A DNA stretch of 7,732 bases from a virus (lineage: Duplodnaviria > Heunggongvirae > Uroviricota > Caudoviricetes): positions 1 through 7,732 of the IMG/VR virus record IMGVR_UViG_2724679236_000001; one strand, 5' to 3'. Every line of letters starts with the position of its first letter. The stretch's first letter is position 1. The notes under the pieces were generated by a model. It saw only the letters and a program-made list of their open reading frames with translations, ran no database searches and was not told the origin of the DNA. A program made the translations under genes and the position numbers. Below, piece by piece: positions 1,025-3,588 of this stretch.

Positions 1025-1333
1025 TCACCTTGCTGTCAGTTGTTTTGATTTCCGGTAGCCTGCCGCGTAAATGGCTACGTTTGGCAGGCAAATACTTCCA
1101 CTGCATTCGTCGGTATTTTGGTTACGAATGTTGCCGAGTGATATTGCTTTTTCAGAAAGGCTTAAACGCTTTCTCGTGCCTTTCTGAACTGGTTCCTTGC
1201 TGTCTGTTCCGAAGATCGAATCGATGATGTTGCAGATGGAATCACGCTCGATAGCCAGCTTTCTGCGCCGCTCATGACGGCGAGTTTTGGCATTTCCTGC
1301 AAATGTTGATTTTCCGTACACGATTACCGTCAT
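1025..1333 (-). CDS. N: Transcription antitermination protein N, P22 gene 24-like (102 aa)
   Basis: Contains GNAKTRRHERRRKLAIER, the arginine-rich boxB-binding motif of P22 N as I recall it; first gene downstream of PL and nutL. I place the start at ATG 1333 (GAGG 8 nt upstream) rather than the in-frame GTG at 1417 used by the ORF track. Confidence 0.8.
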   Translation of the reverse strand: MTVIVYGKSTFAGNAKTRRHERRRKLAIERDSICNIIDSIFGTDSKEPVQKGTRKRLSLSEKAISLGNIRNQNTDECSGSICLPNVAIYAAGYRKSKQLTAR

Positions 1334-1452
1334 GATGTTTTCCTCATGTGAAATGGCTTTGGTGGTGATGCGCCAGATGTTGATCTTCTGGTTGCTGTCG
1401 TTGCAGCTGCAATTCACATCACCGCCAAACCCATCTCGTTTGGTATCTGTTT

Positions 1453-1487
1453 GCGCTTTGTCAGCGCGCCATCGAAGTTAAAGAGCC
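1453..1487 (-). promoter_or_regulatory. nutL (boxA + boxB), P22-type
   Basis: Minus strand reads GCTCTTTAAC (boxA-like, plus 1477..1486), then GCGCT-GACAA-AGCGC (plus 1453..1467): a 5-bp stem with GACAA pentaloop, matching the P22 boxB as I recall it. Lies in the PL leader upstream of N. Confidence 0.7.
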
Positions 1488-1525
1488 TGCCAGTCTGTTC
1501 CGTTTGGCTGCCAGCGTCCTGCTGA

Positions 1526-1561
1526 TGTGTTTAGTATCACCGCTAGTGGTATGTGTGTCAA
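1526..1561 (-). promoter_or_regulatory. PL promoter (-35 TTGACA, -10 GATACT, 17-bp spacer)
   Basis: Reverse complement of plus 1556..1561 is TTGACA and of 1533..1538 is GATACT; hexamers overlap OL2 and OL1 as in lambda. Confidence 0.8.
1535..1551. promoter_or_regulatory. Operator OL1 (cI/Cro binding site)
   Basis: 17-mer TATCACCGCTAGTGGTA; one central-position difference from the lambda OL1 I remember (TATCACCGCCAGTGGTA). Confidence 0.8.
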
Positions 1562-1575
1562 CACCGCCAGAGATA
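1559..1575. promoter_or_regulatory. Operator OL2
   Basis: 17-mer CAACACCGCCAGAGATA, as in lambda OL2 from memory. Confidence 0.8.
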
Positions 1576-1578
1576 ATT

Positions 1579-1595
1579 TATCACCGCAGATGGTT
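1579..1595. promoter_or_regulatory. Operator OL3
   Basis: 17-mer TATCACCGCAGATGGTT, as in lambda OL3 from memory. Confidence 0.8.
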
Positions 1596-1753
1596 ATCTG
1601 TATGTTTTTTATATGGATTTATTTTTTGCAGGGGTGCATTGTTTGGTAGGTGAGGGATCAGAATTGCACTGTTTAGCAAGTTGTATCTATCAATTTTTCA
1701 ATAAATACAATTGGTTATGGTGTTATTAGGTGTGGGGATCGAGAGGCAAAGAA

Positions 1754-1775
1754 AACCCGGCACTGAGGCCGGGTT
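1754..1775 (-). terminator. Intrinsic terminator ending the cI operon (tImm-like)
   Basis: aaCCCGGC-actgag-GCCGGGtt (stem 1756..1761 / 1768..1773, extendable by two A-T pairs); on the minus strand it is followed by UUUCUUUG and begins 2 nt after the stop of the 1777..2100 gene. Confidence 0.65.
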
Positions 1776-1776
1776 G

Positions 1777-2100
1777 TTATTTATGGAAAAACACTTCAAG
1801 TATTTTGGGGATTGCTGGTATGAGTTGTGAGGATACGACCGCACCTACAACCCATAGAATTATCGAAGTTTTCGCGTCGCTTACGTCTGATTTGGTTGCA
1901 TAATTCGAGCGCATGACAGCCAGGTCGGTTTTCATTTGCTGAACATCTTTTTCGAGTTCTTTCACTCTTTGAAGCACATCATCACCTCCGCCATTGCCGC
2001 CACCATGCCGTGAGTATGCATCATCAGTTGGATAGTGTCCAATTGGGCGAGATATGTTTTGATTTGGACGAAGCTGAGTAACCTTGTTATCTAAACTCAT
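1777..2100 (-). CDS. Hypothetical small membrane protein (107 aa): Gly-rich linker, coiled-coil-like segment, single C-terminal TM helix; distal gene of the cI operon
   Basis: Supplied ORF; ATG at 2100 with AGGA upstream; overlaps the upstream gene by 14 nt; sequence shows HGGGNGGGDD, then VLQRVKELEKDVQQMKTDLAVMRSNY, then hydrophobic IILWVVGAVVSSQLIPAI. Architecture resembles XhlA-like/holin-like small membrane proteins (resemblance only). Confidence 0.6.
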   Translation of the reverse strand: MSLDNKVTQLRPNQNISRPIGHYPTDDAYSRHGGGNGGGDDVLQRVKELEKDVQQMKTDLAVMRSNYATKSDVSDAKTSIILWVVGAVVSSQLIPAIPKILEVFFHK

Positions 2101-2524
2101 CGCGAACTGATCCTGTTATCTTCACGTCAAAAAACGAACTTTTTACATCAATTACTTCGCCTTTCTCAGGATTAACCAGTGATGCTCTAACTTCGAATAT
2201 CCCAGGCTTGATAATTTTCACCCTTGGGAAGTTAATTCTCATAGAAGTTGATACGATGGTTTCTCCATCGTTGGCTTCTGCTACCGTAAAAAACTTATGG
2301 TTGGAGTACAGTTTTGTGTCAATTGGTATCGGTATTTCTTGAGCATTGAAAACCTCAATGCCTATGGAATATTTTTTTGTAGCCTTAAGGCCGATAAAAA
2401 AAGCGCCAAATGACAGATCCACTTCATGGGAGTCTTTATCCATTTCATAGATAAGAACTGGAGTTACGGGGTTGCCTTCATCCATCGCAATCGGAATGAT
2501 ATAAGAAATACGTTCTTTAATCAT
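2087..2524 (-). CDS. Hypothetical protein (145 aa) immediately downstream of cI, in the rexA-equivalent position
   Basis: Supplied ORF; ATG at 2524 is 7 nt after the cI stop on the same strand; region visibly more AT-rich than cI; no recognisable motif. Confidence 0.6.
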   Translation of the reverse strand: MIKERISYIIPIAMDEGNPVTPVLIYEMDKDSHEVDLSFGAFFIGLKATKKYSIGIEVFNAQEIPIPIDTKLYSNHKFFTVAEANDGETIVSTSMRINFPRVKIIKPGIFEVRASLVNPEKGEVIDVKSSFFDVKITGSVRDEFR

Positions 2525-2531
2525 TTACGTG

Positions 2532-3245
2532 TTATCCAAACGTCTCTTCAGGCCATTGACTGGCGATAACCTTGCCTACAATGTTGCAGTTCTCATTGCA
2601 TGGGATGATTGGAAACTGCGGGTTAAGTGGTTGCAAAAACACTTGCCCACTATCTTTGATCAGTTTTTTGAATGTGAATTCATCGCCACCAAGTCTAGCG
2701 ATACAGAAATCACCAGGATCAACAGGTTGTTCAGGGTCAACCAAGATTAACATTCCATCAGGAAAGCTTGGTTTCGATCCTGCCGGAGCTGTCATTGAGT
2801 TGCCTTCAACCTCAAGCCAGAATGCAGAATCACTGGCTTTTTTGGTTGTGCTTACCCATCTCTCCGCATCACCTTTGGTAAAGGTTCTAAGCTCAGGCGA
2901 GAACATCCCGGCCTGAACATGAGAAAAAACAGGGTACTCATACTCACTTCTGAGTGATGGCTGCATACTAACCGCTTCATACATCTCGTAGATTTCTCTG
3001 GCGATTGAAGGGCTAAATTCTTCAACGCTAACGTTGAGAATTTTTGCAAGCAATGCAGCGTTATAAGCATTTAATGCATTGACGCCATTAAATAAAGCTC
3101 CAACACCTGACTGCCCCATCCCCATCTTGTCTGCGACAGATTCCTGAGATAAGCCAAGTTCATTTTTCTTTTTTTCATAAATAGCTTTAAGACGACGTGC
3201 GTCCTCAAGCTGCTCTTGTGTTAACGGTTTCTTTTTTGCGCTCAT
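2532..3245 (-). CDS. cI: Lambda-type CI repressor (237 aa; HTH N-terminal domain, LexA/S24-like autocleaving C-terminal domain)
   Basis: Near-identical to lambda CI from memory, including HTH segment [21 protein letters not shown] and the AG cleavage-site region; about a dozen scattered substitutions. Leaderless start at PRM. Confidence 0.95.
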
Positions 3246-3251
3246 ACGTTA

Positions 3252-3280
3252 AATCTATCACCGCAAGGGATAAATATCTA
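3252..3280 (-). promoter_or_regulatory. PRM promoter (-35 TAGATA, -10 TAGATT on minus strand)
   Basis: Reverse complement of plus 3275..3280 is TAGATA and of 3252..3257 is TAGATT, 17-bp spacer; cI ATG at 3245 sits at the expected leaderless start. Confidence 0.8.
3256..3272. promoter_or_regulatory. Operator OR3
   Basis: 17-mer TATCACCGCAAGGGATA, as in lambda OR3 from memory. Confidence 0.85.
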
Positions 3281-3295
3281 ACACCGTGCGTGTTG
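3279..3295. promoter_or_regulatory. Operator OR2
   Basis: 17-mer TAACACCGTGCGTGTTG, as in lambda OR2 from memory. Confidence 0.85.
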
Positions 3296-3321
3296 ACTAT
3301 TTTACCTCTAGCGGTGATAAT
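3293..3321 (+). promoter_or_regulatory. PR promoter (-35 TTGACT 3293..3298, -10 GATAAT 3316..3321)
   Basis: Canonical hexamers with 17-bp spacer overlapping OR2/OR1; cro follows with AGGAGG RBS. Confidence 0.85.
3303..3319. promoter_or_regulatory. Operator OR1
   Basis: 17-mer TACCTCTAGCGGTGATA; one central-position difference from the lambda OR1 I remember (TACCTCTGGCGGTGATA). Confidence 0.85.
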
Positions 3322-3345
3322 AATTGCATGTACTAAGGAGGTTGT

Positions 3346-3546
3346 ATGGAACAACGCATAACCCTGAAAGATTATGCAATGCGCTTTGGTCAAACCAAGA
3401 CGGCTAAAGATCTCGGCGTATATCAAAGCGCGATCAACAAGGCCATTCATGCAGGCCGAAAGATTTTTTTAACTATAAACGCTGATGGAAGCGTTTATGC
3501 GGAAGAAATAAAGCCCTTCCCAAGCAACAAAAAAACAACTGCATAA
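3346..3546 (+). CDS. cro: Cro repressor (66 aa)
   Basis: [66 protein letters not shown] matches lambda Cro from memory apart from one conservative change (V to I); RBS AGGAGG at correct spacing. Confidence 0.95.
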
Positions 3547-3553
3547 GTAACAC

Positions 3554-3588
3554 CGCTCTTTATCAATCTGCACCGCCGACAACGCGGT
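3554..3588 (+). promoter_or_regulatory. nutR (boxA CGCTCTTTA + boxB hairpin with GACAA-containing loop), P22-type
   Basis: CGCTCTTTA at 3554..3562; ACCGC-CGACAAC-GCGGT at 3572..3588 (5-bp stem). Shares the GACAA loop core with nutL, consistent with the N arginine-rich motif. Not lambda-type from memory. Confidence 0.65.

Follow-up and report, generated by a model that had tools for sequence, protein, structure and literature searches.

A lambda-specificity immunity cassette between P22-family N/nut elements in the early region of a probable natural mosaic lambdoid phage

The window analyzed here is the whole stretch of 7,732 nucleotides (nt) from a virus of the Caudoviricetes (IMG/VR record IMGVR_UViG_2724679236_000001, positions 1 to 7,732). 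A lambdoid early region was apparent from its open reading frames (ORFs) and from family scans. The data indicate that it is very probably the early control region from a natural lambdoid mosaic, a prophage or phage, in which an immunity (imm) cassette of lambda specificity lies between P22-family N/nutL and nutR/cII. The window was compared piecewise with lambda, HK97, P22, and Lambda_ev203 (ev203, the phage with the closest N), plus an Stx2a phage. Pieces of it were found in hundreds of phage records and Escherichia coli genomes, whereas coverage of the window reached 80% neither in a phage record nor in a complete E. coli genome, a combination that is the signature of a mosaic.

The regulatory genes and sites between the two joints were of the lambda type. 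The CI repressor was 94.9% identical in amino acids (aa) to that of lambda, 95.8% to HK97, 31.9% to P22 and 21% to ev203; for Cro, the identities were 98.5%, 97.0%, 23.9% and 22%, respectively. The helix-turn-helix recognition segments (CI residues 33-52 and Cro residues 16-35) were unchanged compared to lambda. Six 17-bp operators with lambda sequence and spacing overlapped PL, PR and PRM, four of them being identical to their lambda counterparts, and the PR and PL hexamers lay in blocks 94-100% identical to lambda. An initial annotation of this DNA had described cI, cro, OR1-3, OL1-3, PRM, PR and PL as essentially lambda-type, and this holds with small coordinate corrections. Judged by CI/Cro and the operators, the phage would belong to the lambda immunity-specificity group. 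The two remaining operators, OL1 and OR1, carried the same G-to-A change (at 1544 and 3310), in position 8 of the non-consensus half-site. An altered operator specificity was considered for this change and rejected, since it is a common variant among wild lambda-immunity phages. HK97, mEp234 and the majority of wild lambda-immunity loci also had the OR1 variant, which is therefore probably a natural polymorphism; the OL1 variant occurs independently of it. The CI of the window also carried a T3A substitution in its N-terminal arm.

Outside the cassette, the antitermination elements were of a different type. The N protein matched the N_peptide family PF25694 over its full length (E = 2.6e-39, residues 1-102 against model positions 1-100), and its arginine-rich motif GNAKTRRHERRRKLAIER (residues 13-30) was identical to that of P22 gp24. 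Identity across the protein was 89.2% to ev203 N, 66.7% to P22 gp24, 32% to HK97 N and 18% to lambda N; searching the PDB with the N sequence returned nothing meaningful. A boxB hairpin with a GACAA pentaloop followed boxA in both transcripts, and the two hairpins equaled boxB-left and boxB-right of P22. The lambda motif MDAQTRRRERRAEKQAQW and the lambda loops (GAAAA/GAAGA) were not found. The P22-type motif of N and the GACAA loops of both nut sites proposed in the initial annotation were thus confirmed, and the converse result, N and nut sequences matching lambda rather than P22, which it had named as the observation to overturn its reading, did not appear. The antitermination specificity of both flanks is predicted to be that of the P22 family. 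A scan of the whole window against Rfam (E ≤ 1) returned only rliD, a chance match; a curated nut/boxB family was absent.

The left joint coincided with a 14-mer, GCGTCCTGCTGATG, which was identical in the window, lambda, HK97, P22, ev203, the Stx2a phage EH0505 and E. coli A41. The ev203 and P22 homology ended at 1527 and that to lambda started at 1514, within the interval of about 1487 to 1526 given by the initial annotation and at its right-hand end. To the left of the 14-mer the phages sorted by nut type, and to the right by operator type. The pL start (+1), mapped from the annotation of lambda and mEp234, was window position 1526, so that this hinge corresponds to the first 13 transcribed nucleotides of pL plus one base (pL -1 to +13, minus strand). 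Identity to lambda in 50-bp bins rose from 0% through 68% to 96%, with the mirror image for ev203. The exact 14-mer was present in 120 viral contigs, about 65 of which had a nut-like left flank followed by many different right flanks; because chance matches contaminate such a scan, it was used only after filtering on flanking nut features.

At the right joint, the window followed lambda through the penultimate cro codons. Lambda-specific bases ended at about 3538 and ev203-specific bases began at 3547, from where the sequence (GTAACACCGCTCTTT...) tracked ev203, the Stx2a phages and HK97 into boxA. The GCATAA in between (3541-3546) was common to every phage compared but P22, which has GCGTAA. 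Identity to lambda fell in 50-bp bins from 100% through 88% and 18% to 0%, again with the mirror image for ev203. Megablast against Stx2a-converting phages placed the breaks independently at 1529 and 3539. The steps in identity at both joints are far beyond chance. For the cro-side transition, the initial annotation had given 3546 to 3554; a switch within a few bases was borne out, but the crossover falls at 3539-3546, inside or at the cro stop rather than after it. Its view of the joints as sharp recombination joints of the hybrid-immunity kind is supported by the segment-wise comparison with lambda, P22, HK97, ev203 and the Stx2a phage: the identity profile against lambda that it called for stepped abruptly at both joints, with the reciprocal pattern in ev203, P22 aligned only up to 1527 and from 3541, and the short shared sequences it expected there were the 14-mer on the left and GCATAA at the cro end on the right.

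The nut types on the two sides of the cassette were then compared with each other, because an exchange that does not separate N from its RNA targets predicts that they agree. The set comprised the loci carrying the 14-mer, that is, IMG/VR contigs, reference loci and the window itself. The boxB types of nutL and nutR were concordant throughout: GACAA/GACAA in 16 loci (nine distinct hinge-adjacent sequences), lambda/lambda in 15 loci (six distinct sequences), and discordant in none. Lambda OL1 was found with both nut types in this set.

The closest relatives of the flanks were E. coli phages. In Lambda_ev203 (LR597650) and in Stx2a-converting phages such as Stx2_EH0505 (LC616031), N/nutL was 93-97% identical in nucleotides to the window (97.1% for the Stx2a-converting phages) and nutR-cII 95-98.5%. 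Homology ended at both hinges, with breaks at the same positions (1527-1529 and 3539-3541), and between them these phages differed in having unrelated repressor, cro and operator cassettes. P22 gene 24 (N) and its nut sites share with the window the arginine-rich motif, both boxB hairpins and the boxA form CUCUUUA; P22 differs in that its N gene is only 74.6% identical in nucleotides and that its c2, cro, operators and c1 are absent from the window. These comparisons support P22 as the type and not the donor; by sequence, the donor lineage is one of E. coli phages whose N belongs to the P22 family. The cII-family protein was 97% identical to that of ev203, 83% to HK97, 35% to lambda and 20.6% to P22 c1. 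Lambda-like DNA within cII was restricted to its last ~60 nt (3888-3948, 86.9%), a tract containing an oop-terminator-like hairpin with a T-run on the minus strand (3928 to 3898). In lambda, the oop antisense RNA overlaps cII at the place corresponding to this tract. The data suggest that the lambda-like end of cII is another conserved boundary element. The initial annotation had stated that the cII-like protein keeps only a C-terminal lambda-like segment, which is right for the DNA, but the protein is a complete CII-family member.

The lambda-type module was itself patchy and non-uniform. Within cI, 50 mismatches to lambda occurred in 275 nt (2536-2810), compared to 26 in the 750 nt of 2811-3560, most of them synonymous, and divergence was 18.2% in the 3' third of cI compared to 3.5% across the remaining cI, OR and cro. 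This contrast indicates that the last 90 codons (codons 148-237) came from a diverged lambda-type allele; the joint lies between 2803 and 2897 (codons 117-148). The same diverged tract was present in E. coli A41 and in the IMG/VR contig UViG 2541047701_000005 (L077). A block of about 1656-1776 that contains the Timm-like terminator was kept even in an Stx2a phage of different immunity. At the other side of this terminator, about 1777-2535 had no lambda similarity, and rexA and rexB were not found between cI and Timm; the replaced stretch reaches from the cI stop to the Timm-like terminator. The slot is filled by two ORFs of 145 and 107 aa, which overlap by 14 nt. No match was found to either ORF in Pfam, PADLOC or NCBIfam, and both matched phage families of unknown function (phrog_6324 and phrog_5893). 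Homologues of the 145-aa protein formed a small family, confined to Enterobacterales and all annotated as hypothetical. In epsilon34-like phages of Salmonella, and likewise in prophages of Dryocola and Edwardsiella, the pair immediately followed a cI-type repressor, and across Escherichia, Salmonella (epsilon34 and g341c), Edwardsiella and Dryocola prophages it recurred with unrelated cI-type repressors. The AlphaFold model of the 145-aa protein was confident (pLDDT 87.8), and Foldseek with this model retrieved only generic Ig-like and carbohydrate-binding-type beta-sandwiches (TM ~0.5), giving no functional assignment. The position and architecture of the pair are compatible with a prophage-expressed exclusion function, for which its recurrence makes it a candidate. 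By analogy with RexAB, it may possibly be an undescribed prophage-expressed superinfection-exclusion or abortive-infection system, with a cytoplasmic sensor and a membrane effector, although we hold this only tentatively. The pair is the least-charted element of the interval.

By analogy with lambda and P22, the mosaic would work as follows. CI at OL and OR would keep PL and PR off. After induction, the PL transcript would carry nutL and N, and the PR transcript cro and nutR. The arginine-rich motif of N would bind the GACAA-loop boxB hairpins of both transcripts, and N together with a boxA/Nus complex would make RNA polymerase resistant to termination, reading through downstream terminators. 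The imm cassette begins at the pL start, ends with the cro stop and holds OL1-3/PL, cI, OR1-3/PRM/PR and cro. Since the nut sites lie immediately outside the hinges, the cassette would be replaceable as a unit, with N still matched to its RNA targets. Most likely, the arrangement arose by two crossovers in short shared sequences, one in the 14-nt start of the pL transcript and the other in the cro end and boxA, and in further exchanges a different two-gene cassette would have taken the place of rexAB, and a diverged allele of lambda type that of the 3' third of cI. At both joints, affinity switched abruptly on a short common sequence that is re-used with other modules elsewhere. Both joints sit on sequences conserved across the lambdoid types compared, which argues for recurrent hinges instead of unique breakpoints, and the identity of the hinges favors homologous exchange within them. 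Such exchange at short flanks that are conserved is one of the recognized routes to lambdoid mosaics, besides homeologous and illegitimate recombination (PMC2327257), and cI and cro are repeatedly co-transferred (PMC9836094). As a weaker reading, the 14-nt pL leader may owe part of its maintenance to a role as a linker for recombination, besides its role in transcription.

Several points weigh against this reading. About 55 of the 120 exact 14-mer matches in viral contigs had no nut-like context and are probably chance. The hinges are probably conserved for function, as the initial transcribed region of pL and as boxA, so that their presence at the joints is no proof of crossovers there. The direction and order of the exchanges are not recoverable, and the flanks stop resembling ev203 below 1025 and above 3950, which means that there was no single backbone parent. 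The immunity specificity and the N-dependent antitermination are both read from sequence identity alone, and the recombination route itself is one that we infer. Random illegitimate joins followed by selection would leave the same picture. Such joins, with selection keeping those at functional boundaries and the shared short sequences being incidental, are nevertheless an unlikely origin. In their favor, each hinge falls on a functional element, namely pL +1 to +13 on the left and the cro stop with boxA on the right. The borders of the rex slot (1776/1777 and 2531/2532) lie at gene and terminator edges, where no shared linker was found, although no search was aimed at one, and flanking homology is missing from about half of the borders in lambdoid mosaics (PMC2327257). 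However, exactly where affinity switches, the parental types have a stretch that is the same or almost the same, with 14 of 14 nt shared at the left joint and GCATAA and then boxA at the right joint, and the same hinge joins many different cassettes, as repeated homologous exchange predicts.

A direct recombinant of lambda and Salmonella phage P22, with P22 as the donor of N/nut as in laboratory lambda-P22 hybrids, is very improbable. The identity of the arginine-rich motif and of both boxB hairpins to P22 would fit it, and P22 N is the best-characterized relative, but N/nutL was 74.6% identical to P22 compared to 93% for Lambda_ev203 and 97.1% for the Stx2a-converting phages. Likewise, nutR-cII was 95-98.5% identical to E. 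coli phages, whereas P22 aligned over 50 nt only and its c1 was about 21% identical in aa to the cII of the window, and the imm cassette, at 92.6% identity, was not a full match to lambda. The chance that the arrangement is an assembly chimera of two co-resident prophages is minimal: many E. coli genomes do carry several lambdoid prophages in which these short repeats recur (at up to 10 places in one genome), but 19 (left) and 132 (right) closed, complete genomes of E. coli had the same joints, as did an independent contig from IMG/VR, and the arrangement is functionally coherent, with N matching both nut sites. It is just as improbable that no recombination took place and that, starting from a lambda-like ancestor, N/nut simply changed more quickly than the immunity genes. 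N proteins evolve rapidly and are short, with disordered parts, but identity to lambda dropped from ~96% to unalignable within ~15 nt on both sides, with the reverse for ev203, and these reciprocal steps refute the idea. In addition, N of the window was 18% identical to lambda N and 89% to N from a phage whose repressor is unrelated. Exchange of the cassette at short conserved hinges accordingly remains the preferred reading.

Among 5,426 complete E. coli genomes, 19 contained the left joint and 132 the right one. None of 50,697 deposited phage genomes spanned the left joint, so prophages are the only known carriers of the exact combination. Across both joints, the whole arrangement, diverged cI tract included, was present in the E. 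coli A41 prophage (NZ_CP028735; 1125-1778 at 95.7% and 2534-3984 at 98.3%) and in L077 (99.0% over 1984-3948, and 95-96% over N and nutL-OL). L077 has the rex-slot ORF of the window and differs in a short tract upstream of N. A41 differs by a ParA-family gene in the rex slot, another N C-terminus and another replication module. The initial annotation had regarded uniform similarity to one reference phage as evidence against a mosaic; formally, A41 and L077 show it (95-99%), but they are relatives with the same mosaic, which makes the recombinant not new, yet still mosaic.

Among known phages, HK97 (AF069529), mEp234 (EF120460) and HK106 (EF120461) have the lambda cI/cro/operator cassette (88-90% identical over 2532-3948), the same left 14-mer and the same GCATAAGTAACACCGCTCTTT at the cro end, together with a non-lambda N and GACAA-loop boxB. 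The mEp234 record annotates Timm, nutL, nutR and a "boundary sequence". Their rex slot holds other genes (hicAB in mEp234), and their N is of a different subtype, with 32% aa identity and the motif GNSRSRRRERLKAKALA; only the last ~22 codons of N (1025-1090) match, at 91% nucleotide identity to HK97-type N genes. They have UCGCUGACAAAGCGA as the boxB of nutR and differ from the window in the nutL spacer and boxA. The N C-terminus shared with HK97-type genes marks an intragenic module edge. These wild lambda-immunity phages with a non-lambda N (HK97, mEp234 and HK106) are reportedly the subject of a publication by Degnan et al. in 2007 (Mol Microbiol 64:232; cited in PMC8585504), and work by Juhala et al. 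in 2000 is said to be associated with wild lambda-immunity phages such as HK97. Hybrid-immunity phages have also been made in the laboratory, namely lambda imm434, imm21 and immP22. They follow the same principle, with the imm cassette as an exchangeable module bounded by conserved sequence, but they place foreign immunity in a lambda backbone, whereas the window has lambda immunity with a foreign antitermination system. Hybrids of lambda and P22 usually receive their immunity along with the P22 region, unlike the window. The mosaic is not novel: its kind has been published, and public genomes of E. coli already contain this very combination.

Other features of the window are listed with the main ones in Table 1. 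The membrane ORF at 58-480 sits in the pL operon beside ral and had no match in Pfam or PADLOC; exclusion genes often occupy the ral-adjacent position of the pL operon in lambdoid phages. About five tandem copies of a GGTGGGGCAGGAGCTGCCC(G/C) motif were located at 4400-4510, inside the replication-initiator ORF; the repeats encode GGAGAAR and are presumably origin iterons (cf. lambda O). A 47-aa ORF after cII (3975-4118) matched phrog_1913, whose "tail protein" label looks wrong at such a position.

Table 1. Features of the window, with nucleotide matches to reference phages (positions on the window; strand given where assigned)
Feature	Position	Strand	Remarks
Membrane ORF, 140 aa	58-480	-	Two strongly hydrophobic segments; phrog_3054 (unknown function)
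ral	539-739	-	
Small ORF	844-993	-	
N antiterminator, P22 family, 102 aa	1025-1333	-	Pfam PF25694 N_peptide; phrog_271
nutL boxB, GCGCUGACAAAGCGC	1453-1467	-	5-bp stem, GACAA loop; identical to P22 boxB-left; predicted hairpin
nutL boxA-like, GCUCUUUAA	1478-1486	-	Same sequence in P22 and ev203
Left hinge, 14-mer	1514-1527		ev203/P22/Stx2a homology ends, lambda/HK97 homology begins
PL promoter, TTGACA/GATACT	-35 1556-1561; -10 1533-1538	-	Promoter scan
OL1	1535-1551	-	1 mismatch to lambda
OL2	1559-1575	-	Identical to lambda
OL3	1579-1595	-	Identical to lambda
Timm-like intrinsic terminator, end of cI operon	1754-1775	-	Equivalent annotated Timm in mEp234
107-aa ORF, rex slot	1777-2100	-	Gly-rich N-terminal part, coiled-coil-like middle, one C-terminal hydrophobic helix
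145-aa ORF, rex slot	2087-2524	-	Predicted beta-sandwich
cI repressor, lambda specificity (predicted)	2532-3245	-	225/237 aa identical to lambda; Pfam Peptidase_S24
OR3	3256-3272		Identical to lambda
OR2	3279-3295		Identical to lambda
PR promoter, TTGACT/GATAAT	-35 3293-3298; -10 3316-3321		Promoter scan; PRM in same OR block, 3256-3321
OR1	3303-3319		1 mismatch to lambda
cro, lambda type	3346-3546	+	65/66 aa identical to lambda; Pfam PF09048
Right hinge, last cro codons and stop, C-T-GCATAA	3539-3546		Lambda homology fades, ev203/Stx2a homology starts
nutR boxA, CGCUCUUUA	3554-3562	+	
nutR boxB, ACCGCCGACAACGCGGU	3572-3588	+	Identical to P22 boxB-right; predicted hairpin
cII-family activator, 99 aa	3653-3952	+	Pfam PF05269 Phage_CII, residues 1-92
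HTH replication initiator	4115-4933		Presumed internal iterons
Toprim primase-helicase	5044-6924		
ninB, start only	After 6924		Window end
Nucleotide matches to lambda	1514-1781; 2536-3560; 3888-3948		90.3%; 92.6%, ungapped; 86.9%
Nucleotide matches to ev203	1025-1527; 3541-3948		93.0%; 95.3%
Nucleotide matches to P22	1209-1527; 3541-3590		74.6%; 88%

The practical use of these results is limited to annotation, where the immunity group and the N/nut specificity are to be predicted separately, and the region also flags an uncharacterized pair of cargo genes in the rex slot. It leaves the current understanding unchallenged and provides a clean textbook illustration of modular phage evolution.

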